In this document: piece after piece, positions 1 to 23,113 of the stretch
How the letters are laid out: each line of letters begins with the position of its first letter
Position numbering within the stretch: position 1 is the stretch's first letter
Source of the DNA: Candidatus Kapaibacterium sp.
Lineage (GTDB): Bacteria; Bacteroidota; Ignavibacteria; Kapaibacteriales; WFXC01
NCBI GenBank assembly: GCA_015490805.1
Contig: WFXC01000034.1
Location: 24,656 to 88,655 of the forward strand
Direction of reading: 5' to 3'
DNA: 64,000 bases
Made by a program: the position numbers and the translations under genes
The notes under the pieces: generated by a model
Told to the model about the DNA's origin: nothing
The model's input: only the letters and a program-made list of their open reading frames with translations
Database searches by the model: none

Positions 1-832
1 CGAGAACGTGGCTGGAATGATGCTCACCAATCCGAATACTGCTGGTATTTTTGAGCGGGAAGTGTACCAGATCCAGCAGTTGCTGCACGAGAAAGGAGCG
101 TTGTTTTATATGGATGGTGCCAATCTCAACGCACTGGTTGGACAGGTTAAACCAGCAGCGTTTGGTGTAGATTGTATACATATCAACCTGCATAAAACCT
201 TCTCTACTCCCCACGGCGGTGGTGGTCCAGGTTCTGGTCCAGTTTGTGTTCAATCCGAGCTGGAACCCTATTTACCCGTTCCACGCATAGAGCGCGCGCC
301 TGACGGTACGTACCAGCTCAACTGGGATTATCCTAAGAGCATTGGGAAGATTCACAGTTTCTGGGGAAATTTTGGAATGATGGTACGTGCCTATGCCTAT
401 ATTACCTTGATGGGCAATGAAGGGCTCAAAGAAATCAGTCGCGGGGCGGTGCTGAATGCGAACTATTTGTTTGTCAAATTGCGACATCTGTTTCAGGTAC
501 CTTTTAGTGAACAACCTATGCATGAATTCGTCATCAGCGGTAGCAACCTTAAACCGTACGGAATTAAAACCTTGGACGTTGCGAAGAGACTATTGGATTT
601 CGGTTTCCACGCTCCCACCATTTATTTCCCTCTCATTGTACCGGAAGCAATGCTGGTGGAGCCTACGGAAAGTGAAACAGCAGAAACCTTAGAAGCCTTT
701 GCTCAGGCAATGGAACAGATAGTTGGCGAGGCTCAGCAAGATCCTGAAAAACTCAAGAATGCACCATATACGACTCCTGTTCGTCGCCTCAATGAGGGTT
801 TAGCGTCTAGAAAGTTGATAGTGCGGCAATGA
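1..832 (+). CDS. gcvPB: glycine dehydrogenase (decarboxylating) subunit 2, C-terminal part; the 5' end lies upstream of the window
   Basis: The translation (...NLHKTFSTPHGGGGPGSGPV...) matches the conserved PLP-dependent GcvPB C-terminal half. The ORF runs off the window start. Its stop overlaps the next ATG (ATGA). Confidence 0.85.
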   Translation, partial: ENVAGMMLTNPNTAGIFEREVYQIQQLLHEKGALFYMDGANLNALVGQVKPAAFGVDCIHINLHKTFSTPHGGGGPGSGPVCVQSELEPYLPVPRIERAPDGTYQLNWDYPKSIGKIHSFWGNFGMMVRAYAYITLMGNEGLKEISRGAVLNANYLFVKLRHLFQVPFSEQPMHEFVISGSNLKPYGIKTLDVAKRLLDFGFHAPTIYFPLIVPEAMLVEPTESETAETLEAFAQAMEQIVGEAQQDPEKLKNAPYTTPVRRLNEGLASRKLIVRQ

Positions 833-3800
833 GAGTTTGGATCTTTAGTGGTGTTGTATGGATTGCCTGCGTCTTAGCAGGAGCAGCGCAGTACACGCAG
901 TTTGGTAAGAATAAGATCCAGTACCACACCGAAGATTGGGAAGTGTTAACCACTCCGCATTTTGATGTATATTACCCGAAGGGGTATGCCATTTTGGCAA
1001 AGTTTGCTGCCGCGACGGCTGAACAAGCTTTGCCACGAATTGAGCGCATAATGTTTTACACCATAGCCGATCGGATACCTATTATTGTCTATGAGTCCCA
1101 GAATGAGTTTCAGGAAACCAATGTAATTGCTCCAATTTTGCCAGAGGGGGTTGGAGGGTTTACGGAGATGCTGAAAAATCGTGTTGTTGTGCCGTATGAT
1201 GGTGATTGGGCACAGTTTCAACACGTTGTGGTCCACGAACTGGTTCACGGAATGATCAACCAGATGTTTTATGGAGGGTCGCTTCAAACAGTGCTTCTAC
1301 GGACCAATCTACCTGAACTTCCCCTATGGATGAATGAGGGATTGGCAGAGTATATCAGCTTGCAAGGATTGGATGTTGGGACGGATATGTTCTTGCGAGA
1401 TATTGTGATGAGTGAAGTTTTACCTCCTCTGCGAATGCTGGGAGGGTATTTTGCATACCGCGGGGGGCAGTCCTTTTACTGGTTTGTAGAACAGCGATAC
1501 GGACAGCGGAAGATAGGAGCCCTGCTGCAGCGACTGCTATTGGTAAAGCGTTTAGAGGATGCTTTTGAACTTACCTTTGGCAAATCCTTTGCAGACGTAG
1601 CGGAGGAATGGGAGAAATTTTTGAAGAAGCGGTATTGGCCCGACATAGACCGCTTTCAAGACATTGAGGAAGAAACTCAGCGCTTAACATCTCACCACAA
1701 GCAAGGAAATTTCTATAATTCTTCACCAGCGATTTCCCCAGATGGGAGTAAAGTCGCATTTCTTTCAGATCAAGGAGGAATTTTTGCCGTGTACGTGATG
1801 GACATTACTACTGATCCTCCCAGTGTCCATAAGATTGTAAGCAGTTACCGGGGACCAGACTTTGAAGAACTGAATATTCTGACACCGGGGATTAGCTGGG
1901 CACCCGATAACCAGCGTCTTGCAATTACGGCGAAGTATCAAAATGAAGATGTGCTCTATGTGTATGATCTGAAATCCGGAACCTATCAGCGCCATTCGTG
2001 GGGATTTGAAAAGCTACATTCAGCAGAGTGGTCACCGGATGGAAGGAAAATTGCTTTTGCTGGTACTCGGAATGCTCAGTCCGATATATTTGTGTGGGAC
2101 ATCGAACAGGATTTGCTTTATCAGCTAACGGATGATTGGTATACAGATGTGCAGCCAACGTGGCGTGGTGATGAAGGGGTGTTTTTTATCTCTGATCGAC
2201 AATCGAGAAGTCATCCAGATAAACCTTGGAAATGGAAACTACGACAGTGGGATATATTTTATGTTGATTTATCGGGGCGCAAGATAGTGCCGATTACGCA
2301 TTCTCCATCAGTGAGGGAATATGATCTTCACTATGTTGAGCATCAACGGAGTTTGTATTTTACCAGTGATTATAATGGCATTGCCAATATTTACCGGTAT
2401 GATTTGGAACGTGATTCTTTGTGGGCTATAACAGCGTTTTATTCTCCGGTATACCAATTTTCATTAACGCCGGATGGTGAGAAATTGGTTATGGCAGCGC
2501 AAAATGCAGGAGGATATGACCTATTTCTTATGCGTTTTCCACATGTGCAGCAAATAGCACTGGAACAACTTCCCATGGTTACTTTCAAAACAGAATCTCG
2601 GGACCGAACTTGGAAGGAGGAAGAGATAGCAACCAATATGCCGAGAAAATTTATTCCCTTAGCACGTGGCCAGGTTGCGATTCAGTTCCGGCGACAACGG
2701 TTGATTGCACCGATAGAAGAGTTGCCGGAGTCAGTATCAGCCCTCGACACATTAGCACAATGGAATCCGGACACGGTGCAACCGTACCTGTACAAGGTAA
2801 GGTTTTCACCGGATATCATCTTAGGAAGTGCTGGTTATGATGTATACTTTGGCGTTTTGGGACAGGTCTTTATGATGTTCAGTGATATGCTGGGCAATCA
2901 TCAGATTTTCTTGTCGGCGAATTTACTGTATGATGTGAACAATAGCGATTTCTGGCTGCAATATGCCTTGCTGCCGTACCGTAATGATTATTATTTTCAG
3001 GGGTTTCACACTGCTCGGTTTGTTATTCGAAACAATCGGCTTTATCGCTTCCGTTATTTAGGTGTTGGAGCAGCAGTCAGTATCCCTATCGACCGATTTA
3101 ATCGGATAGAAGTGCAGGGATTAGGTCTTGGAACTTTTACTGAGGATATTGATAATCCCAAGGAAGACATCCAGACCTATCATACTCTTTTGCAGAGCCG
3201 GTTTGTCCACGATGATGCTCTCTGGTCGCCAACGCTGGAGCCATATCGAGGAACAAGGTGGTCTGTAGGCATTGAGGGAATACCAGCATTTGCCAGTTCT
3301 TCTCTGGGCTTCTGGACCCTGCAAGGAGATTTTCGAGGATATTTGCCAGTCTGGAAAGATCTATATGTGATTGCTGCTCGCTTAGCGGGGGCAGGCAGTT
3401 GGGGACAAACGCCGCAGCGGTTTTATTTGTTGGGTATTGAGCAGTGGGTGAATCCAACTTTTTCTGGCAATACTTTACCGTTTCGTAACGCAGAAGATCT
3501 GTTCTTTTACTCTCCTATCTATCCAACCCGGGGAGCACTCGTGAACGAGAAAAATGGTCGGTATTTTCTCTTGTCTAATCTGGAGTTCCGATTCCCGCTG
3601 ATTCATCTTTTGGTACCCGGACCGCTCCCAGTGGCACTCTCCAATATTCGGGGAGCCTTCTTCGCTGACGTTGCAGGTGTTTGGGATACAGACTTTCAGT
3701 GGTTTACAGAAGTGGAAGGAAAGCGGGTAACACGCAATTTGTTTGCTTCTGTTGGTGTAGGGACCCGGTTTATTCTCTTTGGATTACCATTGCGGATTGA

Positions 3801-3873
3801 TGTGGCGTGGAAATATCTGGGAGAAAAGTTTTCTAAGCCATTCTGGCTGTTCTCCCTGGGTTTTGCTTACTGA
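829..3873 (+). CDS. large secreted/outer-membrane protein: N-terminal peptidase-MA-like domain (HELVHG zinc motif), TolB/PD40-type beta-propeller repeats, C-terminal Omp85-like beta-barrel
   Basis: Signal peptide MRVWIFSGVVWIACVLAGAAQ. HExxH in 'VVVHELVHGMIN'. Repeated 'SPDGSKVAF/SPDGRKIAFAG' PD40 motifs. The C-terminus (...GAFFADVAGVW...RIDVAWKY...SLGFAY) resembles Omp85/Bac_surface_Ag barrels. 1014 aa. Confidence 0.55.
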   Translation: MRVWIFSGVVWIACVLAGAAQYTQFGKNKIQYHTEDWEVLTTPHFDVYYPKGYAILAKFAAATAEQALPRIERIMFYTIADRIPIIVYESQNEFQETNVIAPILPEGVGGFTEMLKNRVVVPYDGDWAQFQHVVVHELVHGMINQMFYGGSLQTVLLRTNLPELPLWMNEGLAEYISLQGLDVGTDMFLRDIVMSEVLPPLRMLGGYFAYRGGQSFYWFVEQRYGQRKIGALLQRLLLVKRLEDAFELTFGKSFADVAEEWEKFLKKRYWPDIDRFQDIEEETQRLTSHHKQGNFYNSSPAISPDGSKVAFLSDQGGIFAVYVMDITTDPPSVHKIVSSYRGPDFEELNILTPGISWAPDNQRLAITAKYQNEDVLYVYDLKSGTYQRHSWGFEKLHSAEWSPDGRKIAFAGTRNAQSDIFVWDIEQDLLYQLTDDWYTDVQPTWRGDEGVFFISDRQSRSHPDKPWKWKLRQWDIFYVDLSGRKIVPITHSPSVREYDLHYVEHQRSLYFTSDYNGIANIYRYDLERDSLWAITAFYSPVYQFSLTPDGEKLVMAAQNAGGYDLFLMRFPHVQQIALEQLPMVTFKTESRDRTWKEEEIATNMPRKFIPLARGQVAIQFRRQRLIAPIEELPESVSALDTLAQWNPDTVQPYLYKVRFSPDIILGSAGYDVYFGVLGQVFMMFSDMLGNHQIFLSANLLYDVNNSDFWLQYALLPYRNDYYFQGFHTARFVIRNNRLYRFRYLGVGAAVSIPIDRFNRIEVQGLGLGTFTEDIDNPKEDIQTYHTLLQSRFVHDDALWSPTLEPYRGTRWSVGIEGIPAFASSSLGFWTLQGDFRGYLPVWKDLYVIAARLAGAGSWGQTPQRFYLLGIEQWVNPTFSGNTLPFRNAEDLFFYSPIYPTRGALVNEKNGRYFLLSNLEFRFPLIHLLVPGPLPVALSNIRGAFFADVAGVWDTDFQWFTEVEGKRVTRNLFASVGVGTRFILFGLPLRIDVAWKYLGEKFSKPFWLFSLGFAY

Positions 3874-3891
3874 TGGTTGAGGAGGTGAATA

Positions 3892-5085
3892 TCAACTTGT
3901 GCGAATGTAAATAGATCCAATCAAGGGATCGTGCACCACGTGATTTTGAATATGTTCAATTGCTTTGGCTGTTAAGACTGTTCCAGAGGCGGCAAGTTTC
4001 ATTCCTGCATTTGTAATGAGATCTCGTGCCAAGATCATTCCCTCACGTAGATCGGCTAAGCTAATCACTTGGATATGTCCCTGTAAGTCTTGTCGTAAAT
4101 TGGTCCAGATATATTCGTCTAAGAGCATTACAAGGCGGGGATCGTAAGCCTTTTTTGTATCACGTTGCATTTTCTCCATTGCTTCCAGGGGAGAAAGCGA
4201 GAAAGCGTAACGATACATTTGAAAGTCGTAAGCAATGCGTAGAATACGTGATTCTATGGGAATCAAGCCTTTTTCAATGCGGTCCGGGAAGCCTGTGCCG
4301 TCGTAATTTTCAAAGAGCGAATGAAGAATGGTACGAATGGGGTGGAGAAAAGGTATAGGTTCGAGAATTTTATCACTGCAGTAGGGAATTTGGTGCATCA
4401 GTTGGTGGGTCGCAATACCGTTGACAGTTGGAGGTTGGTGAAGCAGTTCATCAGGGAGGAAAATTTTGCCGATTAAAGCAATTCGAGCAGCAGCACCAAT
4501 TGCTTCAATTTGTTGGCGGTTCAGCTCTCCAAAGTGCTCAGCAATCCACTGAGCAATATGGCGCACTTTTTCTGTAATTTCCGTTGCTTCTGGCAGGACA
4601 GAGACCTGGACCTGTTCCAAGGTTTGGAGTATCTGTTCTTGAAAATTCTTAACGACTTCTCGGAGGTGGGAAAGTTCTGATTTGAGCTGCTGATTCTGGT
4701 TGTGCAGTGTATGAAAACGGCGGAGTCGACTGATGCGTAGATAAAAGTATTCGGGAGAATAGGGAAGAAGCAAAATGTCGTCGACTCCTAGTTCCATCGC
4801 TTGAAATCGTAATTCGGTTTCGGAAGGTTTTGTCAGAAGCATAATAATCGGAGAGGATATAGTATCTTCATGGATTTTTTTTAGTAGATCTAAAACGGGC
4901 AGATCCTGGAGATCTGAGGAGAGAATGAGTAAGACAGAGCTTTGAGCGGTCATTAGCATTTCGTAAGCAGTATAGCCGGCCGTCGTAGTTAAGATGCGAG
5001 CACGAGGATACAATTGAGCTAATAAATGTGCTGTCGATTGGAGTAATCGCGCATCTTGTATGGCAACGATGAATTGCATTGCCAT
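3892..5085 (-). CDS. response regulator with atypical receiver domain and degenerate HD-GYP-like domain
   Basis: N-terminal CheY-like fold with putative acceptor Asp ('ILSSDLQDLP'). The C-terminal HD-GYP-like region has the HD dyad replaced ('ARIALIGKIF' instead of 'LLHDIGK') and GYP replaced ('DGTGFPD'). Only 8 bp downstream of motB on the same strand. Confidence 0.65.
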   Translation of the reverse strand: MAMQFIVAIQDARLLQSTAHLLAQLYPRARILTTTAGYTAYEMLMTAQSSVLLILSSDLQDLPVLDLLKKIHEDTISSPIIMLLTKPSETELRFQAMELGVDDILLLPYSPEYFYLRISRLRRFHTLHNQNQQLKSELSHLREVVKNFQEQILQTLEQVQVSVLPEATEITEKVRHIAQWIAEHFGELNRQQIEAIGAAARIALIGKIFLPDELLHQPPTVNGIATHQLMHQIPYCSDKILEPIPFLHPIRTILHSLFENYDGTGFPDRIEKGLIPIESRILRIAYDFQMYRYAFSLSPLEAMEKMQRDTKKAYDPRLVMLLDEYIWTNLRQDLQGHIQVISLADLREGMILARDLITNAGMKLAASGTVLTAKAIEHIQNHVVHDPLIGSIYIRTS

Positions 5086-5092
5086 TGATTGC

Positions 5093-6034
5093 TTATTGCA
5101 AAGGTGTTTCTAAGAAACTAGAAGTTGGCAAGTATTCTACTAAGATACTGATACGGCGATTGCTGGAATCGAAGGGATTGTTAGGGTTTTTGAGCTTGCG
5201 ATCTGCATACCCGATCACGCTGGATACCTGTCCAGGCCATAAACCGTTTTCCTCCAGGAAGCGCCGAGCAGCATTGGCACGATCAGTGGATAGCTCCCAG
5301 TTCGTGTAGTTTTTGCCGGGGAATGGCCGGCTATCTGTATGCCCCTCAATTCGGATATGGTTGGGAAGTTTTCCTAATTCCTGCGCTAACATTCGCAAGA
5401 TCCGCTTTGCTTCGGGTGTCAGAGTTGCTTTCCCGACCTCGAAAAAGGCATTATTCTCTTTTTCGATTAACTCGATGCGAAGCCCTTCCTGGGTGATAGA
5501 GAGCTCAATATGCTTGAGGAGTTTCTGCAGGTTGGGACTTTGCTGGGCAACTTTTTGTAGAAGCTGGCGAAATTCTTTTTCTTTTGCTTTTAGTGCTTCA
5601 GCCGCTTTGGCACTGTCCTGGAGGGCAATAAAATATTTTTCCCGTTGCACACTGTCCAGACTCAATAACTTTTTGGGTAACTGGTTCGTGGTCTGTTCTG
5701 TAGGATCGTGGAAGTTGTCAATGAATTCTGGGTCATTTTTGTTAAAAATATACCGTGCTGGTTTCGCGTGGTCAATTCCCACAGGGAGAGCCTTGCCGGT
5801 GAGAAAACTAAAAGGTCCAGGTTCTCGAAAATATGCAGCAATATCCCGTTTTGCCGATTTGCTCAATCCCATAATCCACATTACCAAGAAGAACGCCATC
5901 ATTGCGGTAACAAAATCTGCATAGGCAACTTTCCACGCACCACCATGGTGCCCGTGCCCTGCTGTTTTCTTGATCTTCTTTATAACAACCGGCTCTTCCT
6001 GCTTCTGTTGCTGCTCTTCAGCCATCGAGCTCAA
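5093..6034 (-). CDS. motB: flagellar motor stator protein MotB (OmpA-like peptidoglycan-binding C-terminus)
   Basis: N-terminus 'GHGHHGGAWKVAYADFVTAMMAFFLVMW' is the canonical MotB plug/TM region. C-terminal OmpA-like 'GHTDSRPF...NWELSTDRANAARRFL'. Confidence 0.85.
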   Translation of the reverse strand: MSSMAEEQQQKQEEPVVIKKIKKTAGHGHHGGAWKVAYADFVTAMMAFFLVMWIMGLSKSAKRDIAAYFREPGPFSFLTGKALPVGIDHAKPARYIFNKNDPEFIDNFHDPTEQTTNQLPKKLLSLDSVQREKYFIALQDSAKAAEALKAKEKEFRQLLQKVAQQSPNLQKLLKHIELSITQEGLRIELIEKENNAFFEVGKATLTPEAKRILRMLAQELGKLPNHIRIEGHTDSRPFPGKNYTNWELSTDRANAARRFLEENGLWPGQVSSVIGYADRKLKNPNNPFDSSNRRISILVEYLPTSSFLETPLQ

Positions 6035-6886
6035 TTATCGTTGTTTAACGGTTTCTTCCATCTCCTGGAACGTTGGTCGATGGTCTGTTTCTATCGCTCG
6101 CCGGGCATATTCTACGGCAATTAATGGCGGCATGCCCTTGACAAAAGCTAAGATGCCGGCTTTCAGGACTTTTAAATATTCCATTCGTGCCGCGTTGCTG
6201 TGTTCGGTACTTTTTGCTATTGGGCCAACCATTCCGTATGAAAGAAGAATTCCCAGGAACGTACCAACCAATGCTGCTGCTACACTATGGCCGATAACAG
6301 CCGGTGGTTGGTCGATCTTTCCCATTGTAATAACTACTCCTAAGACAGCCGCAACGATCCCTAAGCCAGGGAAAGAGTCTGCCATAGTCGTAAGCGCAGA
6401 GGAGGGTTTTTCTTCTTCGTGATGCATGGTTTCCAGATCTAAGTCCATCAGGTCTTCCAGCTCGTTGGCTGGTACGCCACCATTTAGGACAACTTTGAAG
6501 GTATCAGCGACAAAACTAACGGCGTGGTGGTTTTTCAAAAAGAATTCATATTTCGTGAAAATGGAACTCCCTTCAGGGTTTTCGACGTGTGGTTCCAGTG
6601 CAATGAGTCCATCCTTCTTTGCCAACTGAAACAGTTCGTACAGCATCTTTAGCGTTTCCAGATACTGTTCCTTAGTAATTTTGAAGCCACCCTTGAGCGC
6701 TTCAATAGCCCCGCTGATCGCTTTTTTGACTACTGGCATTGGGTTTGCCAGCAAGAATCCTCCAAAGGCAGCTCCGCCAATAATAATGAATTCGTTGATC
6801 TGGAAGAGAATCGCAAAGTTTCCACCGTGGATAGCATATCCTAAGGCTACACAGGCAAATACGATGATTAAACCGACAATACCCAT
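6035..6886 (-). CDS. motA: flagellar motor stator protein MotA (MotA/TolQ/ExbB proton channel family)
   Basis: 283 aa with 4 TM segments. The start (MGIVGLIIVFA...GYAIHGG) and C-terminal TM3/4 region are typical MotA. The stop abuts the motB start. Confidence 0.85.
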   Translation of the reverse strand: MGIVGLIIVFACVALGYAIHGGNFAILFQINEFIIIGGAAFGGFLLANPMPVVKKAISGAIEALKGGFKITKEQYLETLKMLYELFQLAKKDGLIALEPHVENPEGSSIFTKYEFFLKNHHAVSFVADTFKVVLNGGVPANELEDLMDLDLETMHHEEEKPSSALTTMADSFPGLGIVAAVLGVVITMGKIDQPPAVIGHSVAAALVGTFLGILLSYGMVGPIAKSTEHSNAARMEYLKVLKAGILAFVKGMPPLIAVEYARRAIETDHRPTFQEMEETVKQR

Positions 6887-6986
6887 TCCCTAACGTTGGA
6901 CGCTATATTATTCCACACACTTTTTCGTTTCCACTTTTTCCAAATATATGGAAATTTTAAGCAGTACCAAAAGCCTAATAGAGATT

Positions 6987-7424
6987 ATGGTTTACATAAC
7001 ACGCAAAGCAACGTTTTCTGCCGCCCATCGATTGTATAACCCGAAGTTTTCAGATGAGGAAAATGAGCGGATTTTTGACAAATGTAACAATCCGCTCGGT
7101 CACGGTCATAACTACGTGCTGGAAGTTACGGTGGCAGGACATCCAGATCCGGATACCGGGTATGTGCTGGATTTGAAAGAGCTTAAAGCAATTATTGACC
7201 GGGAAATTATTGAGGCGGTTGACCACAAACACCTGAACTATGATGTCCCCTTTTTACGGGGAATAATTCCAACGGTGGAGAATTTAGTCGTGGTTTTTTG
7301 GCGTATTCTGGAATCGAAACTGCCGTCCGGGAAGTTGTACCGTATTCGCCTCTTTGAGTCTGATGCAAATTGGGCAGAATACTATGGAGAACCGGTCGAG
7401 GTGAAAGTGCAGGAGGAGGGATGA
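6987..7424 (+). CDS. queD: 6-carboxy-5,6,7,8-tetrahydropterin synthase / 6-pyruvoyl-tetrahydropterin synthase family (QueD-like)
   Basis: C-x5-HGH catalytic motif ('CNNPLGHGHNY'). A QueD-like N-terminus 'KATFSAAHRL' supports the ATG at 6987; the ORF track starts at 6948. Confidence 0.8.
   Translation: MVYITRKATFSAAHRLYNPKFSDEENERIFDKCNNPLGHGHNYVLEVTVAGHPDPDTGYVLDLKELKAIIDREIIEAVDHKHLNYDVPFLRGIIPTVENLVVVFWRILESKLPSGKLYRIRLFESDANWAEYYGEPVEVKVQEEG
7411..7420 (+). promoter_or_regulatory. Shine-Dalgarno AGGAGGAGGG immediately upstream of folE ATG (7421)
   Basis: Purine-rich SD directly 5' of the ATG; the folE start overlaps the queD stop (ATGA). Confidence 0.6.
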
Positions 7425-8092
7425 AAAAAGTGTGGTTACAGACGGGTGATGGGAACGGCGAAACAGCTATCACAAAACAGTCGTTTGATGCCAATGGATC
7501 AATGCCGCTGTCGGAAGAAGAGAAGGCGGAAATGTTGCAGCAAGCAGAACAGAAATTTGTAGAATTATTCCAGATTTTCCGTATCTCTTTGCAAGATCCC
7601 AATGCAGCCGAGACGCCGAAGCGGCTGGCAAAAATGTGGGTAGAAGAACTGTTCCGAGGGCGATTCTCTGGGCCACCAAAAATCACCATTTTTCCCAATC
7701 GCAAAGGAGTTGATGAACTGATTATCAGCAAAGGCATTAAAGTGATTTCCGTCTGTTCACACCACTGGCAACCGATCATCGGGGAGTGTAGCATTGGCTA
7801 TCTGCCCGGACAGTATATCATTGGGTTGTCGAAACTGACCCGTATTGTCGACTGGTTTGCCCGGCGAGCGCAGATTCAGGAGGAATTAGGGGAGCAAATT
7901 GCTGATTTTATCGAGGAATTGATACATCCGAAGGCATTGGGGGTTGTCATTACTGCCCGGCATTACTGTATGATTGCTCGTGGTGTAGAGGCAGATGATG
8001 AACGGTCGCAAATGGTAACTTCTGTGATGCGGGGATTGCTGGCAAAGGATATGAACTTGCGCAACGAGTTTTTACAGCTCATCCGGCAATAA
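7421..8092 (+). CDS. folE: GTP cyclohydrolase I
   Basis: Conserved 'CSHHWQPIIGECSIGYLPGQYIIGLSKL...ARHYCM' motifs. Translationally coupled to queD. Confidence 0.85.
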   Translation: MKKVWLQTGDGNGETAITKQSFDANGSMPLSEEEKAEMLQQAEQKFVELFQIFRISLQDPNAAETPKRLAKMWVEELFRGRFSGPPKITIFPNRKGVDELIISKGIKVISVCSHHWQPIIGECSIGYLPGQYIIGLSKLTRIVDWFARRAQIQEELGEQIADFIEELIHPKALGVVITARHYCMIARGVEADDERSQMVTSVMRGLLAKDMNLRNEFLQLIRQ

Positions 8093-8093
8093 T

Positions 8094-10757
8094 TTGATGA
8101 AGCTACTGGGAGTTTCACTCGCCTGGTGCACTGTGATTGCCATCAGCTTTGCACAGCCTAGTTCGTATTCTCCCCAGTATATTGCTGATCGGCAGACAGC
8201 GTTCTGGTTTAAACGAGCATTCCCTTTTGATACCATATCCGTCTATGCCATACGACAGGCAACACAGGTGCTCCACCAGTGGACCTTGAAAACGGCAGCG
8301 ACAGCGCAGGGGTATCGGTGGGTACCCATAGGACCTTTTACTGTTGCTGGACGCACTATTTCAGTGGTTGTCGATCCCAAAGATCATCAACAGTGGTACG
8401 TGGGAACGGCGGCTGGCGGCGTGTGGACAACTTCTGATGCAGGAAAATCGTGGATCCAGCTTCCAACCAATGGATTGCCTGTTTACGCCATCGGTGCATT
8501 GTCCCTGGTAGGGGATACGCTTTTTGCGGGCACCGGTGAACCGAATTTTGCCTATCGGAACTATCCGGGGGATGGGATTTATTGGATTCTGCGAAGTGAT
8601 CTGCACAGGGGGTGGCAGAAGCTTTCGGAAAGTGTCGGAGGAATAATTGCTGTTATTGCAAGCCAAAAAACCTCCACAACCAGAAACCACCCAACCGGAC
8701 TCTACCAGCGCATCTCCCACTCCACATTTACAAGAATTCTACCAGGAACAGTCACTGACTTTGCACCTCACCCTCTCGATTCCCAGCTCATTGTCGCCGT
8801 CATTGGAGAACCCTTTGGAAGTCCACAAAATGGCGTCTATAAAACCACCGATGGGGGAAAAACGTGGAAAAAAATCCAGCAGGGAGTACCGTCAGACTTT
8901 GGACGCGCTGAGATTGCGTGGGATGCTGATGGCAACGCATTATATCTGCTGGTTGCCAACACCCAGGGTGGCTGGGGAGGACTGTACCGCTCACTGGATC
9001 AGGGGGAAAGTTTCCAATCAATTTCCACAGCGCCATCACAGCTTTTTGGGCATAATGTCACTTCCGGTCAGGGGTGGTATGATATTACCTTAGGGATTTC
9101 ACCATATGATCCCCAGCAAATCTGGATTGGTGGTGTATGGCTGTATCGATCTACTGACGGGGGTACCAGTTGGAAAAAAATTTCAGATCTTCACGTCGAT
9201 CAGCACAACCTGGCTTTCATATCGAGAGACTCGATCCTCGTAGTGAACGACGGTGGCGTCTACTTGATCGTTGATACCGTTGCACTTTACCGGAGTACGG
9301 GATTGCTTTCAACACAGTTTTACGACGTTGACCTACACCCATCGCAGCCGATCGTGCTGGGGGGAACCCAGGATAATGGTGCTTTTCTGCTGACACAAAA
9401 AGGCTGGCGGCAGATCATTCAGGGAGATGTCACGCGGTGCATCATTCATAGCCAAAATCCCGATTTGTTTCTTCTCAATACGCCGTACGGCTATTTGTAT
9501 CGCACAACGTCTCAGGGACAGCAATGGCAGTTTTCTGGCACGGGTATTAACTACAATGAAGTTCGGTTTTGGGAAACACCGCTGATCCAGAGTCACAAAA
9601 AACCGAGGGTATTTTATACAGCGACCAGCCGCGTTTACCGATCGACCGATGACGGCGTTCGATGGACTCCCATTAGCCCGCCCTTAGGAGGATCTAACAT
9701 TCCTATTGTGGTATTGTCAGAATACGATACGCAAACTTTTGCAGCGGCAACCTTAGATGGCAGGGTGTTCCTTACCCGTAGTGGAGGATTGCGATGGTCA
9801 GAGATAACAGGCGATTCATTGCCACGTCGATTTCCTGCGACGATTGCCTTCCATCCTGCGACCGATCGCATTATGGTTGTTGGATATTCAGGTTATGGCA
9901 CAAAGCATCTATGGCTAACCCGTAACCGGGGATTTAGCTGGCACAGTATCGACGGAAATCTTCCGGATATTCCCGTTAACGTTTTTCGATTTGATCCCTA
10001 CCGTCCCGATTCACAGTGGTATGTAGGAACAGATTTTGGCATTTTTTACACCGCAGACGCAGGACAGCATTGGCAGCCTTTGTACAATGGGGTAGGCATA
10101 GCGCCGGTGACGGATATAGTCATTGATACAGTTCGACGGGAGATTTTGATTGCAACTTACGGGATGGGAATCTGGAAGGTCGGGCGAGATGCAGTACCTG
10201 TTGAGCTGGAACTGTTTGAAGCTCAACTGGTATCTTCTCGGACCGTTGAGCTATTTTGGAAAATGCAGGTGCAAGATGAAGTTGAACGGTTCCGTGTTAC
10301 CCGGTTGTGTAGTGGACAGCTACCCGTTATTGTAGAAGAGGTATTGCCGAGTTCGGCGAGTCTGTACACCGTGCGGGATTCTCTGCGATCCTTAGCGCTC
10401 CGATGTGATACGCTTCAGTATCGTCTGGAGGCAATTCTTGCCGATGGTACCCTCAAAGTGCTGGGAAATCGTACCGTGGTGTTGCGTCTGGAAAATTACG
10501 ATCTCAGTCTGGTAAAGGCGCAGTGGACGGGGGAGCAACTATTAGTCCATTATCGACTGCCGAAGCGCATGGCTGCCAGCTTAGATCTCGTTACGCTTGA
10601 TGGTCGGACCATTCCACTATTGCACCATCCCAGCCATCCCGGTGGAAATTTTGTGCTGACACTCTCATTGCGGTCCGATCAATATGCGCAGGGAATATTC
10701 TTTGTTCGTCTACGAACGCCGTCCAGGCAGGTTGTTTTGAGGGTGCAGAAGTTTTAA
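8094..10757 (+). CDS. secreted BNR/Asp-box repeat protein (sialidase/Ycf48-like beta-propeller) with T9SS-type C-terminal sorting domain
   Basis: Signal peptide MMKLLGVSLAWCTVIAISFAQP. Multiple S-x-D-x-G-x-T-W Asp-box repeats (TSDAGKSW, TDGGKTW, STDGGTSW, STDDGVRW, TADAGQHW). The C-terminal ~80 aa are a beta-sandwich CTD ending ...FFVRLRTPSRQVVLRVQKF. Confidence 0.6.
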   Translation: MMKLLGVSLAWCTVIAISFAQPSSYSPQYIADRQTAFWFKRAFPFDTISVYAIRQATQVLHQWTLKTAATAQGYRWVPIGPFTVAGRTISVVVDPKDHQQWYVGTAAGGVWTTSDAGKSWIQLPTNGLPVYAIGALSLVGDTLFAGTGEPNFAYRNYPGDGIYWILRSDLHRGWQKLSESVGGIIAVIASQKTSTTRNHPTGLYQRISHSTFTRILPGTVTDFAPHPLDSQLIVAVIGEPFGSPQNGVYKTTDGGKTWKKIQQGVPSDFGRAEIAWDADGNALYLLVANTQGGWGGLYRSLDQGESFQSISTAPSQLFGHNVTSGQGWYDITLGISPYDPQQIWIGGVWLYRSTDGGTSWKKISDLHVDQHNLAFISRDSILVVNDGGVYLIVDTVALYRSTGLLSTQFYDVDLHPSQPIVLGGTQDNGAFLLTQKGWRQIIQGDVTRCIIHSQNPDLFLLNTPYGYLYRTTSQGQQWQFSGTGINYNEVRFWETPLIQSHKKPRVFYTATSRVYRSTDDGVRWTPISPPLGGSNIPIVVLSEYDTQTFAAATLDGRVFLTRSGGLRWSEITGDSLPRRFPATIAFHPATDRIMVVGYSGYGTKHLWLTRNRGFSWHSIDGNLPDIPVNVFRFDPYRPDSQWYVGTDFGIFYTADAGQHWQPLYNGVGIAPVTDIVIDTVRREILIATYGMGIWKVGRDAVPVELELFEAQLVSSRTVELFWKMQVQDEVERFRVTRLCSGQLPVIVEEVLPSSASLYTVRDSLRSLALRCDTLQYRLEAILADGTLKVLGNRTVVLRLENYDLSLVKAQWTGEQLLVHYRLPKRMAASLDLVTLDGRTIPLLHHPSHPGGNFVLTLSLRSDQYAQGIFFVRLRTPSRQVVLRVQKF

Positions 10758-11386
10758 TGGGGAATCCCGATACAGAATATGAACAACGATATTGGGAGCA
10801 ACAGCAACTGGTTGCCGGTGTTGATGAGGCCGGGCGTGGGGCGCTGGCAGGACCCGTCGTTGCTGCCGCCGTGGTGTTGCAGCCCGATGACTATATCGAC
10901 GGGGTGAGAGACTCCAAACAGCTTCGACCTGCCCAGCGCGAGCAGTTGTTTGCACAAATCACTCAACAGACACGGGCGTGGGCGATAGGCTGGGCAGATG
11001 TCGAGGAAATCAACCGATGGAATATTCTACAGGCAACAATGGTAGCAATGCGGCGAGCAGTAGAGCGACTCACCGTACGACCTGATGTGCTTTTCGTTGA
11101 TGGCAACTACTTTGTCACTGATCTGCAGATCCCGGCTGTCACGATCCCTCAGGGCGACCAGCGGTCGTTATCCATTGCCGCTGCTTCGATTCTGGCAAAA
11201 GTCTGGCGGGATCGATGGATGGTGGAAATAGCCGATCCCCAGTTTCCGGAATATGGATTTGCCCGGCATAAGGGATATGGCACCCGGCAGCACCGGGACG
11301 CTATTCAGCAATTTGGCGTAACACCGTTACATCGAAAAAAGTTTGTTCAGCGAATTCTGGAGCAGTGCCGTGAATCTCTTTTTTAA
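10757..11386 (+). CDS. rnhB: ribonuclease HII
   Basis: 'VAGVDEAGRGALAGPVVAAAVVL' catalytic DEDD N-terminus; about 209 aa. Confidence 0.85.
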   Translation: MGNPDTEYEQRYWEQQQLVAGVDEAGRGALAGPVVAAAVVLQPDDYIDGVRDSKQLRPAQREQLFAQITQQTRAWAIGWADVEEINRWNILQATMVAMRRAVERLTVRPDVLFVDGNYFVTDLQIPAVTIPQGDQRSLSIAAASILAKVWRDRWMVEIADPQFPEYGFARHKGYGTRQHRDAIQQFGVTPLHRKKFVQRILEQCRESLF

Positions 11387-12659
11387 AAATATTCGGATTA
11401 TTAGTCCTGTAGATCATCTGGATGGAACGTATAATCTCTGGATTCGGGAAGGGCGCATCGAGTATATTGGGCAAGAAGTGCCATCCAGAGTTACCGATGC
11501 TCGCCCTAAGACTATCGAGGCACACCATTTAGCTGCTGTTCCGGGATTGTTTGATATGCACGTGCATTTCCGTGATCCAGGGGCTTTGCACAAAGAAGAT
11601 ACCCTCTCAGGCGTTGCGGCAGCAGCAAACGGTGGATTTACCGGAGTGCTGTGCATGCCCAATACAGAACCGCCCTTAGACAATGCTGCGACCATTCAGA
11701 TGCTCCAGGTTAAAGGTGATGGCAAACCCGTGGATGTTTTTTATAGTGCAACGATTACCAAAGGTCGGCGGGGACAGGAACTGGTAGATTTTGCGAGCTT
11801 GCTGGACGTTGGGGTCGTTTGTTTCACGGACGATGGAAGCTCTGTTCCGACTGCCGGGGTGTTGCAGCGAGCTTTCCGATCCTTGTCGCCATACGATGGA
11901 CTTATCGCTGAGCACTGCGAAGATACATCGTTGACTCAGGGATTCGACATCAATGAGGGAATTGTCTCAGCACGGCTGGGATTGCGCGGTTATCCGGCTA
12001 TAGCAGAAGAACTCATCATTGCCCGCGACATTTTGCTGGCAGCAGCTACGGGCAACCGACGACTTCATATTTGCCACCTGAGCACTCGCGGAGGCGTTGC
12101 GCTGGTGCAGCGGGCAAAAGAATCCGGACAACGGATTACTGCTGAGGTAACCCCGCATCATCTGACACTCACCGAGGAAGCAGTTGGGCACTTTCAGACC
12201 AATGCTAAAATGAGCCCTCCACTACGAACCGAAGCTGATATTGAGGCACTCATTACAGGCCTCAAATCGGGCATCATCGACTGCATTGCAACGGATCACG
12301 CCCCACATGCGTGGTGGGAAAAGGAAGTGCCATTTTCCGAAGCACCTTACGGGATCATTGGGTTAGAAACAGCGCTGGGACTGATTTTGACGTTTCTCCA
12401 TCACCGGCATCAAATCGGGCTGGAAAAAATCGTTGAATGGATGGCAGTCAATCCGAGAAAGATTCTGGGGCTGCCGCAGCCCCGAATACAGGTTGGGGAA
12501 GAGGCTAATTGTACCATCTTCGACCCGCTGGCGACGTGGGTTGTGGATGTTCATCGATTCCGCTCTAAGTCACGGAACACGCCTTATCATGGTATGCAGT
12601 TGAAAGGCAAACCCGTGATGATCATCAATAACCGACAGATTGTGGAATCGACGCTTTAA
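11343..12659 (+). CDS. pyrC: dihydroorotase (cyclic amidohydrolase family)
   Basis: 'DMHVHFRDPG' metal-binding motif, and 'CHLSTRGG' plus 'ATDHAPH' motifs typical of class I DHOase. The true start may be a GTG slightly downstream of 11343, reducing the overlap with rnhB. Confidence 0.75.
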   Translation: MFSEFWSSAVNLFFKNIRIISPVDHLDGTYNLWIREGRIEYIGQEVPSRVTDARPKTIEAHHLAAVPGLFDMHVHFRDPGALHKEDTLSGVAAAANGGFTGVLCMPNTEPPLDNAATIQMLQVKGDGKPVDVFYSATITKGRRGQELVDFASLLDVGVVCFTDDGSSVPTAGVLQRAFRSLSPYDGLIAEHCEDTSLTQGFDINEGIVSARLGLRGYPAIAEELIIARDILLAAATGNRRLHICHLSTRGGVALVQRAKESGQRITAEVTPHHLTLTEEAVGHFQTNAKMSPPLRTEADIEALITGLKSGIIDCIATDHAPHAWWEKEVPFSEAPYGIIGLETALGLILTFLHHRHQIGLEKIVEWMAVNPRKILGLPQPRIQVGEEANCTIFDPLATWVVDVHRFRSKSRNTPYHGMQLKGKPVMIINNRQIVESTL

Positions 12660-12748
12660 GCAATAAGATGTCAAACCTCAAGCAGCGAGGAAATTTAACC
12701 TTCCAGCAAAATAAGAAGTTCCGGAACAACGTTTATGGCATTTTCCAT

Positions 12749-12822
12749 CGGCGCGTAGCGCAGCCCGGTAGCGCACCACCTTGGGGTGGTGGGGGTCGCG
12801 GGTTCAAATCCCGCCGCGCCGA
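12749..12822 (+). tRNA. tRNA-Pro (anticodon GGG)
   Basis: Manual cloverleaf. Acceptor CGGCGCG/CGCGCCG, D-stem GCGC/GCGC, anticodon stem CCACC/GGTGG with loop TTGGGGT (anticodon GGG), T-stem GCGGG/CCCGC with loop TTCAAAT. Discriminator A, no encoded CCA. Confidence 0.85.
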
Positions 12823-12896
12823 CAGACAGACGATAGGACCATTGAGTTGGATGAAAGCACTGACGGCACAGCCTGAAGTTACAGGTACGCACAAGG

Positions 12897-14324
12897 ATGC
12901 GTTTTGAGAAACTGCGGGTCTTTTTTGTCCTTATTCTCCTCAGCACCTCTTTCTATTCCTTCCAATTCTTTGCTATTGGTACCTATGGGGTTAAGCTGAG
13001 CGATATCCTACTAATTGCTTTTTACGGCTGGTTAGCGTGGCGGGTAGCAACACGGGGAATAACTCTATCGCCTTTGCTCCATCCAATAACGCTGCTCTTA
13101 TTTTTCCCATTGTTGGCTGTTGCTTTCTCTGTTGTCACTCCCATTGTGTCGCTGGGACAGGGAACACAGTTTCTGAAAACCTTTTCGCATTTTCTGTTCT
13201 ACTACGGTTTTTTCCTGTGCGTCGTTCTCCTGGATCCAAGAGCTTCCTTTGCAACTTTTTTTATCCGGATCTTCCTCATCTGGGGCTTCCTTGTCAGTTT
13301 GTATGGCGTCTACCAACTGCCAGCAAGAGTTTTTGATCTACCACTGGGATGGTTGCCGGTCACGAACGTTTCCGTCTTTGCATCCCGTACGCCTGATCCG
13401 TACAAATTAACAAAAACAGCATCGCAGCTCAGTCTGCAATATTCCCAGTTCTTTCGTTCCACATCGCTGTTTAGCGAACCCTCGGTGTTGGGGCGAATGG
13501 CAGCAACAATGTTGCTGTTTGTGTTGGTGCCATATATCCAGAAGGAAAAGCCGTTCCTGCCAAAGGGATGGAGCATTGCGATTGGTATCACGCTCGTTTT
13601 GGCAATTTTTGCCAGTCTTTCGCTTACCGGAGTTGGAGGCGTCATTGTCTTGCTTGTGAGCATTGTCCTGCTGGAAGGCTTGCGTCGCAGCCGGGTGCTG
13701 TTTGGTTACCTTGTCGCTATGGTTCTGGTAATCGTCATTGCTGCGAAAATTCTGACACCAATTGTACAAATTGACATTCTGGATTTGTACTTTCAACGAA
13801 TATCGCGCATCTTGAAAATCGGCACTACCCCTTTTACAGAACATATCAGTGGAGAATCAACCTCCACGCGTTTGAAGGGAATGAAGGTTTCGCTGGAAGT
13901 GTGGGAAGAATATCCCGTGGTCGGAATCGGTGCGGGACATTTTTATCTGTCGGAAACAGCACAACGGGAAGGATTTGTGTTTTCTTCCACGATGTATACG
14001 GCGCTGCTTTCCGAGACAGGTGTTGTTGGTTTTACCCTCTTTATGGCATTCCTGCTGGGACTGTTCTTTGCTGCTTTACAGTTGTATTATCACCGGAAAC
14101 AATGGCAGGATGCAGAGTTGCGCCGCCTGGCTGGCGTGTTGCCATACCTGGTGATTCTGTATCTGTTTTTTAAGCTCAGTTCCACTGTCTACGTTTCGCT
14201 CTGGGTTGATCTTATCTTCGCTTTCCGGATGGTGATGGAGCTGGTTGGGCGTACGGGGTCCGTGCTATCTGCCCCGTTGCTGCTCCGTATACCTTCCCTG
14301 AAAACAGTGTTCAGCAGCAGATGA
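12897..14324 (+). CDS. O-antigen ligase / Wzy-like polymerase family polytopic membrane protein
   Basis: About 10-12 TM helices. The periplasmic loop motif 'EYPVVGIGAGHFY' is characteristic of the Wzy_C/O-antigen ligase family. Confidence 0.6.
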   Translation: MRFEKLRVFFVLILLSTSFYSFQFFAIGTYGVKLSDILLIAFYGWLAWRVATRGITLSPLLHPITLLLFFPLLAVAFSVVTPIVSLGQGTQFLKTFSHFLFYYGFFLCVVLLDPRASFATFFIRIFLIWGFLVSLYGVYQLPARVFDLPLGWLPVTNVSVFASRTPDPYKLTKTASQLSLQYSQFFRSTSLFSEPSVLGRMAATMLLFVLVPYIQKEKPFLPKGWSIAIGITLVLAIFASLSLTGVGGVIVLLVSIVLLEGLRRSRVLFGYLVAMVLVIVIAAKILTPIVQIDILDLYFQRISRILKIGTTPFTEHISGESTSTRLKGMKVSLEVWEEYPVVGIGAGHFYLSETAQREGFVFSSTMYTALLSETGVVGFTLFMAFLLGLFFAALQLYYHRKQWQDAELRRLAGVLPYLVILYLFFKLSSTVYVSLWVDLIFAFRMVMELVGRTGSVLSAPLLLRIPSLKTVFSSR

Positions 14325-16634: not shown

Positions 16635-18806
16635 ATGAGTACGTGGCGACGTCGATTCCAGTCCTTCGGGGAAGTTTTTCGGGCAATGTGGCGTAACAAA
16701 GCGAGGCTACCCTACGCATTCCGTATTCTACAGGACGGTACATGCGACGGCTGCGCCCTCGGAACGTATGGGATGAAAGACTGGACGATGGATGGGATCC
16801 ACCTCTGCTGGATCCGATTACGCCTGCTGGAGTACAACACAATGTCTCCTTTTCGCCCATCGGATTTGCCGGATCTGGAAACTCTGCGTACGCTCAGCGA
16901 GCCGCAGCTTCGACAACTCGGACGCATTCCTCTACCGCTGGTATGGCAACCGGGAGATAAACAGTTGCACCCAATTTCGTGGTCTGAGGCAATTCAAACC
17001 ATTGCGGAGAAAATTGGCAGTACCGATCCCCGGCGCATTGCTTTTTACCTGGTTTCCCGCGGCACACCGAACGAGACGTACTACGTAGCGCAAAAGGTTG
17101 CCCGTTATCTCGGCACAAATAACATCGACAATTCTGCCCGGATCTGCCACGCCCCCAGCACTACAGCGCTAAAACAGAGCCTGGGTTATGCAGCGACAAC
17201 GTGCAGTTACAAAGACTTTTTTGATGCTGAATGGATCGTTTTTGTCGGCAGCAATGTGGCAAACAATCAGCCGGTGGTGATGAAGTATTTGCACATTGCG
17301 AAGAAAAAGGGGGTCAAAGTAGCGGTTGTTAATCCTTTCCTGGAACCGGGGATGGAGCGATACTGGGTTCCTTCCTCGGTTGATTCAGCAATATTTGGCA
17401 CGCGGATTGCCGATGAATTTTTCCAGATTAAGCCGGGTGGTGACATCGCCTTTTTCCACGGCGTGCTGAAATGGCTCATTGACATAGGTGGAATAAAGCA
17501 GGATATTGTTGAACGCTATACAGTTGGTTGGGAAGAACTGCGAGCGCTGATAGAACAGCTTTCGTGGGAAGCGATTGAACGGCATTCGGGGTTATCGCGG
17601 ACGCGGATTCGGGACTTTGCAGAATTCTACGCCCGGAGTGAGCGTGTTATCTTTGTCTGGTCGATGGGGGTCACAATGCACGAGTTCGGCGTGCAGAATG
17701 TTCGTGCTATTGCGAATGTTGCCTTAGCGCGAGGAATGGTGGGCAAACCGGGCACGGGACTGATGGCGATTCGAGGGCATTCGGGTGTGCAGGGAGGAGC
17801 AGAGATGGGGGCGGTTCCAACCCACTTTCCGGGTGGCGTGCCCATTGCAACGGAGACCGCTGAACGCTTTGCCAGCCAGTGGGGCTTTGCTGTGCCAGAT
17901 TGGCGAGGGCAATTTATTGTGGATACCATTGACGCTGCTGCCAACGGCGAAATCGATGTATTGTATGCTGCCGGCAGCAATCTGTTTGCCGTCTTGCCAG
18001 ATTCTCTCTATGTTCGGGATGCGCTGACAAAAATTCCTTTGCGAATTCATCACGATATCGTGCTCAACCCTCAGATGTTTGTCAATGCACGGGAAATGGT
18101 GCTGATTCTTCCTGCAACGACGCGATATGAAATGGCAGGAGGAAATACGGAAACCTCAACGGAACGTCGCGTTATTTTTAATCCGGAAATTCCAGGTCCA
18201 CGGGTACCCGAAGCGCGGGACGAATGGCGGGTACTGATCGAAATTGCACAGCAGGTCAAACCGGATGATGCAGAAAAAATTACCTTTGACTCCACACAGG
18301 CTATTCGTGAGGAGATTGCCCGTGTCATTCCATTGTACGATGGAATTCAGCATCTTCGAAAAAAGGGAGATTCCTTTCAATGGGGTGGAGAGCGACTGTG
18401 CGAGAACTATCAATTCGGAACACCCGATGGCAAAGCCCGCTTTGCCGCTATCGAGCTTCCAGATAACACCGTTCCGCCTGGCAAGTTCCGATTAACAACC
18501 CGCCGGGGAAAACAGTTTAACAGCATCATTTTTGATAACGTCGATACGTTGACGGGAACCGATCGACACACCATTTTAATGAATCCAGCCGACATAAAAG
18601 AACTGGGATTACGGGACGGGGATCGAATTCGATTGCGTTCCGCCACCGGTGAGCTTACAGGAATACTACGATCGGGCAACGTGTATCCACAGACAGTGGT
18701 CGCCTTTTGGCCCGAAGCCAACGTCCTTATCCAGCGGGGCAAAACAGATCCGCAATGCGGCATTCCAGCCTATCGGGATACCATCGTTGAAGTCCTGCGA
18801 GCGTGA
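16635..18806 (+). CDS. FdhF/YdeP-family molybdopterin (bis-MGD) oxidoreductase, formate-dehydrogenase-like alpha subunit
   Basis: N-terminal Cys cluster 'CDGCALGTYG', molybdopterin-binding domains and a C-terminal MopB_CT-like region. 723 aa. Followed immediately by fdhD. Confidence 0.7.
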   Translation: MSTWRRRFQSFGEVFRAMWRNKARLPYAFRILQDGTCDGCALGTYGMKDWTMDGIHLCWIRLRLLEYNTMSPFRPSDLPDLETLRTLSEPQLRQLGRIPLPLVWQPGDKQLHPISWSEAIQTIAEKIGSTDPRRIAFYLVSRGTPNETYYVAQKVARYLGTNNIDNSARICHAPSTTALKQSLGYAATTCSYKDFFDAEWIVFVGSNVANNQPVVMKYLHIAKKKGVKVAVVNPFLEPGMERYWVPSSVDSAIFGTRIADEFFQIKPGGDIAFFHGVLKWLIDIGGIKQDIVERYTVGWEELRALIEQLSWEAIERHSGLSRTRIRDFAEFYARSERVIFVWSMGVTMHEFGVQNVRAIANVALARGMVGKPGTGLMAIRGHSGVQGGAEMGAVPTHFPGGVPIATETAERFASQWGFAVPDWRGQFIVDTIDAAANGEIDVLYAAGSNLFAVLPDSLYVRDALTKIPLRIHHDIVLNPQMFVNAREMVLILPATTRYEMAGGNTETSTERRVIFNPEIPGPRVPEARDEWRVLIEIAQQVKPDDAEKITFDSTQAIREEIARVIPLYDGIQHLRKKGDSFQWGGERLCENYQFGTPDGKARFAAIELPDNTVPPGKFRLTTRRGKQFNSIIFDNVDTLTGTDRHTILMNPADIKELGLRDGDRIRLRSATGELTGILRSGNVYPQTVVAFWPEANVLIQRGKTDPQCGIPAYRDTIVEVLRA

Positions 18807-18818
18807 TGTCCAGAAACA

Positions 18819-19664: not shown

Positions 19665-19743
19665 TGTTGGGTGCTTATTTCCGCAAAGTTTTGTAAATTA
19701 TTTTAAGTTTTGCAGGCAAACGGAAGCAAAAGAGGGCGTGTGA

Positions 19744-20217: not shown

Positions 20218-20226
20218 GAGCTGAGA

Positions 20227-20697: not shown

Positions 20698-20714
20698 AAT
20701 AAACGAGGAGTGCA

Positions 20715-23096: not shown

Positions 23097-23113
23097 CTGG
23101 GGAGATAGAAGCA

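Follow-up and report, generated by a model that had tools for sequence, protein, structure and literature searches.

Response regulators that join a receiver (REC) domain to an inactivated HD-GYP domain are already known. Among them are HnoD of Shewanella oneidensis (SO_2541), which acts by protein contacts and not by hydrolysis, and NosR of Burkholderia, for which the same is proposed. Here we describe a regulator of this general make-up that is encoded directly behind the stator genes motA and motB in Candidatus Kapaibacterium sp. (assembly GCA_015490805.1, contig WFXC01000034.1), within a stretch of 64,000 nucleotides (positions 24,656 to 88,655) that we call the window. The best NCBIfam match of the regulator was the NosR family NF053512, with 134 bits over amino acids (aa) 125-384, and its alignment with NosR covers the HD-GYP domain and reaches the C-terminal region. 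However, this score is one third of the family cutoff of 400, and the neighbourhood of H-NOX or NosP sensors and a kinase, in which the HnoD and NosR genes sit, is absent; the neighbours of the regulator gene are motAB and a gene of the Omp85 type. HnoD and NosR also keep a phosphorylatable receiver, whereas the receiver in the window is degenerate. Their known or proposed target is another c-di-GMP (cyclic di-GMP) enzyme, whereas the fixed partners here are motA and motB.

Several other proteins invite comparison with the regulator. DvhD of Desulfovibrio vulgaris has the same fold, and the HD and HH ligands are gone in both proteins. The 2026 structure of DvhD (PDB 9RBZ) is that of a degenerate HD-GYP domain (HD to SQ and HH to MN) that binds c-di-GMP free of metal, at about 0.1 uM. 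However, DvhD keeps the nucleotide contacts, which the motAB-linked clade lacks, and it is a membrane dCache-PAS receptor controlling an adhesin protease, unlike the regulator. YcgR, MotI (DgrA) and FlgZ are cytoplasmic brakes of the PilZ type on the stator or rotor and may be functional analogues of the regulator, in which, however, no PilZ domain was detected at E <= 0.1. Once a flagellar stator is assembled, the controls known to act on it are for the most part c-di-GMP effectors of the PilZ type or clutch proteins whose genes lie elsewhere in the genome, and to our knowledge the PilZ-type brakes generally lie outside the motAB operon. ECA3548, in which PilZN-PilZ is fused to an inactivated HD-GYP domain, is a precedent for a dead HD-GYP domain near a motor-brake module. 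PA2572 of Pseudomonas aeruginosa is said to be a non-catalytic REC/HD-GYP protein with motility-related behaviour that is paired with a chemotaxis-type sensor; its gene reportedly does not accompany stator genes, and its residue pattern, YN-GYP, is different. In RpfG of Xanthomonas, the GYP motif is an interaction surface for GGDEF proteins, controlling motility. RpfG, which has been cited as acting through interactions, shares the REC/HD-GYP architecture of the regulator (COG3437) but keeps its HD and GYP residues, and its gene lies in the rpf quorum-sensing cluster. Finally, the response regulator PorX, whose output domain is of the phosphodiesterase type, binds PorL, a MotA-like protein, on its cytoplasmic portion (PMC5005315, PMC10951265). 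The PorX-PorL pair of type IX secretion thus offers, in the same superphylum, a response regulator on a MotA-like motor subunit, but it differs in its PglZ output fold, its PorLM/GldLM motor and its lack of a stator-operon arrangement.

Our literature searches gave no description of an HD-GYP regulator linked to motAB. The trio is mentioned in one paper, on Ca. Thermonerobacter thiotrophicus, in which the genes are listed by COG only. Although degenerate REC/HD-GYP regulators are known, the searchable literature contains no account of a clade that is fixed in a stator operon and has lost its contacts to metal as well as to nucleotide. Our best reading of the locus, to which we give a probability of about 0.55, is that the third gene encodes a catalytically dead regulator of the RpfG family that would act by protein contacts on a stator that is most likely flagellar.

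Metal ligands and nucleotide contacts of the regulator

Relatives of the regulator were collected by a scan of one genome per species, which gave 352 of them, and the best 80 were fetched; a profile search with the alignment of the family, limited to 8000 candidates, contributed hardly any more. Among these 80, motA and motB lie immediately upstream on the same strand in about 50 loci (wherever upstream DNA is present), and 50 such linked homologues were used to measure conservation.

An earlier note on this DNA had claimed that the HD dyad of the regulator is lost. Re-alignment with active HD-GYP enzymes confirmed this, placing 'IALIGK' at the HDxGK site; 'RIALIGKIF' (aa 201-209) occupies this position and 'DGTGFP' that of DGxGYP. 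The residues were mapped with PmGH, DvhD, PA4781 and V-cGAP3 as references. Seven of the eight metal ligands of PmGH are replaced in the window protein (H189 by I170, H221 by A203, D222 by L204, H250 by I233, H276 by L257, H277 by F258 and D305 by Y286), and the only one kept is E185, as E166. Outside the set of ligands, D308 is replaced by Q289 and Y285 by F266. The metal ligands are missing in all members of the clade. With seven of eight ligands lost, hydrolysis by the known mechanism is excluded, and the domain is, to judge from its residues, catalytically dead. The earlier note had also pointed to GFP in place of GYP. The letters were read correctly, but we rejected GFP as a sign of inactivation because the active enzyme PA4781 and homologues with an intact HD read GFP as well; GFP alone is therefore no proof of inactivation. 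Conservation within the regulator is highest in the GYP loop and in the C-terminal domain. At least 90% of the linked homologues keep the scaffold of the loop (E259, N260, D262, G263, G265, P267, I275, R280, I281 and R283), and among four regions of the regulator the C-terminal domain is the most conserved, with a mean majority fraction of 0.53.

DvhD contacts c-di-GMP through L577, K582, Y621 (the tyrosine of GYP), M646, R650, Y652, R653 and E668, and we placed these residues by a numbering re-derived from the aligned sequence. In this placing, L577 and K582 fall in and just after the KPGxL loop, Y621 is again the GYP tyrosine, M646, R650, Y652 and R653 lie in or just before the RxY(R/K) loop, and E668 lies in a later helix. 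The contact motifs are common to PmGH, V-cGAP3 and two homologues with an intact HD (P0017 and P0021), and PA4781 has the near variants NPGL and HxYR. The lysine of KPG, K235 in PmGH, is a recognised c-di-GMP contact. In the window protein this lysine is Q217, KPGxL as a whole reads QPPTV, the GYP tyrosine is F266, M646 is replaced by tyrosine and E668 by threonine, and the RxYR loop has a deletion of four residues. None of the DvhD and PmGH contact positions is conserved among the 50 linked homologues. Because the contacts are substituted or deleted across the clade, the canonical mode of c-di-GMP binding is not retained. As to other signalling nucleotides, a CdaA-type diadenylate cyclase (CdaA_N and DAC) is encoded at 29492-30301 on the minus strand, so that cyclic di-AMP (c-di-AMP) signalling exists in this genome; GGDEF or EAL genes were not seen in the window.

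The AlphaFold2 (AF2) model of the regulator, made from an alignment of 17 sequences, has a mean predicted local distance difference test score (pLDDT) of 92.6 and shows four parts (Table 1). Foldseek matched the first domain to many receivers and the middle domain to PA4781 (4r8z), DvhD (9rbz) and PmGH (4mcw) with a probability of 1.00. In Pfam, the regulator matched HD_5 (E 5e-24), and Response_reg scored 24.2 bits, under its gathering score of 30.2; PilZ and PilZN gave no match at E <= 0.1. An S-helix often precedes C-terminal HD-GYP domains (Galperin and Chou), and the long helix in front of the HD-GYP domain here resembles one.

The C-terminal domain alone had no Pfam match even at E <= 10 and no Foldseek match in PDB below E 0.1, and its separate AF2 model reached a pLDDT of 91. 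Its profile found 4004 cluster representatives, most of them proteins of about 400 aa that end in the domain. When longer proteins with the domain were checked in Pfam, HD_5 was found in all six and a receiver also in four of them. To judge from these sequences, the domain is a member of a large family that lacks a Pfam model. It also occurs at the N-terminus of P0201, with a cyclic nucleotide (cNMP)-binding domain, and in three to six tandem copies in some proteins (P0201, P0188 and P0271 are those listed for the domain). We do not claim a likeness to DUF3391, with its 'L..GM' motif; the sole hint of it is weak and indirect and comes from one protein, P0201, in which DUF3391 also gave a sub-threshold hit.

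The receiver of the regulator was rightly called atypical. The acidic pair reads I9/Q10, the lysine is L107 and the column of the acceptor has a serine, with D58 one or two residues later; T85 is kept. In at least 90% of the linked homologues the acceptor aspartate is kept, and most of them have a canonical receiver. Given the loss of metal ligands throughout the clade and the canonical receiver in most members, the ancestor was therefore a regulator that could be phosphorylated but whose output domain was already dead. The lineage of the window later lost the chemistry of the receiver too.

Table 1. Positions of the stator operon, the parts of its regulator and other features in the window
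Feature	Coordinates	Strand	Basis or remark
motA, 283 aa	6035..6886	-	E. coli-like MotA1-type stator channel subunit; TIGR03818, MotA_N and MotA_ExbB
motB, 310 aa from ATG at 6025	5093..6025	-	MotB_plug and OmpA
motB-regulator spacer, 7 nt	5086..5092	-	Sequence reading
Regulator gene, 397 aa, ATG at 5085	3892..5085	-	HD_5 E 5e-24, AF2, Foldseek
Receiver-fold domain, aa 1-110	4756..5085	-	AF2 (beta-alpha)5; lacks the Mg-binding acidic pair and Lys
Long connecting helix, S-helix-like, aa 111-165	4591..4755	-	AF2: one helix over aa 111-163
Degenerate HD-GYP domain, aa 166-334	4084..4590	-	Residue mapping on PmGH
C-terminal beta/alpha domain, about 60 aa, aa 335-397	3895..4083	-	AF2 (aa 338-395 modelled as a small beta/alpha domain)
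Divergent motA/queD intergenic space, 61 bp	6887..6947	.	Sole non-coding space upstream of the operon
tRNA gene	12749-12822	+	Rfam; sole Rfam match of the window

The motA-motB-regulator operon and its flagellar context

The three genes are head-to-tail open reading frames on the minus strand, separated by 9 and 7 nucleotides. The contiguity claimed for them earlier holds, with two corrections: the gap between motB and the regulator gene is 7 nucleotides and not 8, and the stop of motA abuts the start of motB if the latter is the TTG at 6034, directly 3' of the motA TAA, whereas public gene calls use the ATG at 6025, 9 nucleotides downstream, giving 310 aa. A scan of positions 3500-7400 for promoters and terminators found sites no more numerous than in shuffled sequence, which is uninformative on transcription units; it gave no evidence of a separate promoter for the regulator, the counts being those of the shuffles. 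No riboswitch was found by the Rfam scan of the window, including the space between motA and queD.

The three genes behave as a single operon. The tie of the regulator to the stator was borne out by synteny in about 50 genomes, each from a different species, in which the genes are a few nucleotides apart or have overlapping codons. The gap between motB and the regulator gene was measured over 51 loci, with the start codon of the regulator set as far downstream as the alignment permits. Its median is 4 nucleotides; it is at most 30 nucleotides in 46 of the loci, and the genes overlap in 22. These short or overlapping gaps speak for co-transcription and, in many loci, for translational coupling. 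Every linked homologue retains the order and spacing, even between groups with no more than 25-35% identity, and motA-motB-regulator is an old, conserved module of the branch related to Kapabacteria, Ignavibacteria and Chlorobi. The regulator was found letter-identical in three assemblies (GCA_026997895.1, GCA_015491775.1 and GCA_027071715.1), and its nearest species representatives, with 92-93% identity, are labelled Candidatus Kapaibacterium sp. Compared with two related loci (L004 and L005, at a synonymous divergence, dS, of ~0.7-1.3), the ratio of nonsynonymous to synonymous substitution (dN/dS) was 0.003-0.004 for motA, 0.015-0.028 for motB and 0.027-0.032 for the regulator gene. Ratios of 0.003-0.03 indicate strong purifying selection on each of the three genes, which are therefore functional.

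MotA scored 355.5 bits against the equivalog model TIGR03818, above the cutoff of 303.8, and MotB scored 254.7 bits against NF006548, narrowly under the cutoff of 277, with clear plug and OmpA domains. In E. coli numbering, E98, P173 and P222 of MotA are identical, R90 is replaced by lysine, and the proton-binding D32 of MotB is kept. MotAB is a stator with a proton channel, of the E. coli (MotA1) type, and most likely drives a flagellar rotor.

No other flagellar gene lies within the 64 kb, as the earlier note had said, and no chemotaxis gene either; this was established with phmmer, using 40 flagellar and chemotaxis proteins of E. coli, and with the Pfam tables. A FlgI query from an Ignavibacteria-type locus returned, among the matches listed, Ignavibacteria-type proteins only (at least 68% identity), none of which is tied to the three assemblies with an identical regulator. 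In relatives, the setting is flagellar. At least 15 loci of the Ignavibacteria type carry flgH-I-J-K-L, a second and more distant motAB, fliW (Pfam 103 bits) and then motA-motB-regulator, and where there are two stators in such loci the regulator always stands behind the pair of the MotA1 type. The loci in which fliW parts the two pairs are L055, L058-L060, L062-L066, L068, L069, L072 and L075-L077; in L058, for example, they span 5971-9915, and the distant MotA and MotB have about 258 and 251 aa. Published metagenome-assembled genomes (MAGs) of Kapabacteria are reported to carry genes for flagella and chemotaxis at scattered sites. In the gene table of Ca. Thermonerobacter thiotrophicus, a member of the Kapabacteria, MotA, MotB and a 'REC + HD-GYP response regulator' are the consecutive genes 615-617, and the table also holds FliG, FliM, FlgE, FlgI, FlgG, FlhB, FliR, a second MotA and a second MotB. 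These genomes do not bear out the earlier remark that the phylum often lacks flagella. With flagellar clusters in the relatives and the residues of MotA and MotB kept, the stator is therefore most likely flagellar.

Regulators linked to motAB cluster by sequence apart from a clade of 21 paralogues that are never beside motAB (L018, L020, L022, L023, L029-L031, L033, L035, L038, L042-L046, L049, L052, L054, L056, L057 and L073), and five MAGs hold one linked and one unlinked locus each. The unlinked paralogues are degenerate REC/HD-GYP proteins too, and many have an asparagine at the acceptor position ('EK..N..T..K'). In Kapabacteria a PorX-like gene adjoins the unlinked paralogue: in L022 and L029 the latter is flanked by a REC-PglZ regulator similar to PorX and by a Clp_N/AAA gene. 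In some linked loci of an Ignavibacteria-type subclade, a hybrid histidine kinase (CBS-HisKA-HATPase-REC) is encoded just downstream of the regulator, convergently at 11365-13104 (minus strand) in L058, with kinases of the same type in L060, L075 and L076; it is a candidate for the cognate kinase. P0010, a protein of 302 aa on a Logan contig of 1794 nucleotides, joins the first ~75 residues of a MotA in-frame to the last part of a family member's receiver and its HD-GYP domain; it stems either from a misassembly or from a natural deletion that spans motA, motB and REC.

Downstream of the regulator gene, a convergent gene for a 1014-aa protein (829-3873, plus strand) stops 18 nucleotides from the regulator stop. 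The protein has Peptidase_MA_2, Tricorn-like and PD40 beta-propeller regions and a C-terminal Omp85 domain, a make-up that is odd for the Omp85 family. The rest of the window has housekeeping functions. It includes a large Sortilin/BNR-repeat protein at 8094-10757 (plus strand), in which no sorting domain is recorded, and at 16635-23971 (plus strand) a molybdopterin oxidoreductase, FdhD, CoxG and a set of the aerobic-type CO/xanthine dehydrogenase (Fer2_2, MoCoBD and FAD_binding_5). The gene at 61353-63500 (minus strand) has a C-terminal sorting domain of type IX secretion, which fits a host of the FCB group (Fibrobacteres, Chlorobi and Bacteroidetes).

Possible action on the stator and its alternatives

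We suggest that the third gene encodes a pseudoenzyme of the RpfG family, made of REC, a long helix, HD-GYP and a small C-terminal domain. It cannot bind the catalytic metals, and most of the positions by which HD-GYP domains of solved structure hold c-di-GMP are lost. The conserved face of its GYP loop, together with the C-terminal domain, would most likely dock on a component of the motor, which we infer to be the cytoplasmic domain of MotA or FliG. Docking would then alter the engagement or torque of the stator, and the regulator might brake the motor, work as a clutch or select between the two types of stator found in relatives. Selection of stators is a plausible sub-function because relatives carry two pairs and the regulator is always with the MotA1-type one. 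In most members, a receiver with all phosphorylation residues would be switched by a histidine kinase. Because the receiver is degenerate as well in the lineage of the window, the regulator would there act constitutively or be controlled by its abundance or by a partner.

Several points weigh against this interpretation. Tight linkage in an operon speaks for co-expression and not for physical contact. The C-terminal domain, which is proposed to take part in docking, matches no Pfam or PDB entry that would point to a function. A conserved neighbouring histidine kinase was sought and is present only in one subclade. With phmmer and the Pfam tables, flagellar genes were found neither in the window nor in the ~6-10 kb beyond either end. 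In addition, the retained residues K207, E259, D262 and R280 could serve a non-canonical ligand site.

This last point touches the proposal of the earlier note, in which the dead HD-GYP domain is a receptor of c-di-GMP or cyclic GMP-AMP (cGAMP) and its nucleotide-loaded form brakes the stator like YcgR, with a different fold. The metal-free binding of c-di-GMP by the degenerate DvhD is in line with such a role, as are the G-x-G-x-P loop that the window protein retains besides the four residues just named, and the union of a YcgR-like PilZN-PilZ module with an inactivated HD-GYP domain in ECA3548. However, the contacts that DvhD uses are replaced or deleted in the window protein and unconserved in the linked clade, and the c-di-GMP-binding lysine of PmGH has become a glutamine, so that we consider a receptor of this kind unlikely. 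It is likewise doubtful that the regulator leaves the motor untouched and, in the manner of HnoD and NosR, binds and modulates a c-di-GMP cyclase or phosphodiesterase, coupling the expression of the stator to the c-di-GMP pool. HnoD does inhibit HnoB, an EAL enzyme, and NosR, whose family is the top NCBIfam match, has been proposed to act likewise; Ignavibacteria-type members of the clade read HE..K and QLE, comparable with QLE in HnoD. The match is far under its cutoff, however, and neither H-NOX and NosP nor GGDEF and EAL genes are conserved neighbours, whereas motA and motB are invariant, with overlapping codons.

The earlier note had also suggested that the stator pair drives a machine other than the flagellum. 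The stator and its regulator would then power gliding or another envelope motor, and the flagellum, if any, would use the second stator. The trio is indeed detached from flagellar genes in Kapabacteria, and the second MotA of Ca. Thermonerobacter is numbered close to FlgE, FlgI and FlgG. The trio also occurs in MAGs labelled Chloroherpeton (L037, L039 and L048), and C. thalassium in culture moves by gliding and reportedly has no flagellar genes, but the taxonomic labels of these MAGs are unverified. As MotA is above the TIGR03818 cutoff, the prolines and the charges facing FliG are kept (E98, P173, P222 and the lysine at R90, as is D32 of MotB) and the orthologous trio lies within flagellar clusters of Ignavibacteria-type genomes, this suggestion is quite improbable. 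We give even less credence to co-transcription without functional coupling, by which an ordinary orphan signalling protein would merely share the transcript of motAB. The unlinked paralogues in the same genomes would suit such a protein, but the order and spacing kept in all linked homologues at so low an identity are hard to explain without selection. On balance, we favour a dead RpfG-family regulator that contacts the stator.

A wider form of this proposal is tentative and perhaps the less probable. In it, these regulators would form a class of pseudoenzymes that are derived from response regulators and dedicated to the stator, and they would dock by the face of the GYP loop and by the C-terminal domain on one of two types of stator; in gliding lineages that lost the flagellum, similar to Chloroherpeton, the unit may have been kept for a non-flagellar motor. 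If such a class exists, it would open a direct route from two-component signalling to the stator, independent of CheY-FliM and of PilZ and c-di-GMP.

The locus presents a response-regulator scaffold, dead as an enzyme, that has become a fixed part of the stator operon in a class-level clade, frequently next to a second pair of stator genes. It also advises caution in annotation, in that the name of the domain alone is insufficient to call such genes c-di-GMP phosphodiesterases or receptors. If the regulator does bind MotA or FliG, it would provide the microbes with a control point at the stator that is driven by phosphorylation and with a means of choosing between stator types, and it would clearly exemplify how an HD-GYP domain can be put to new use as a module for interaction.

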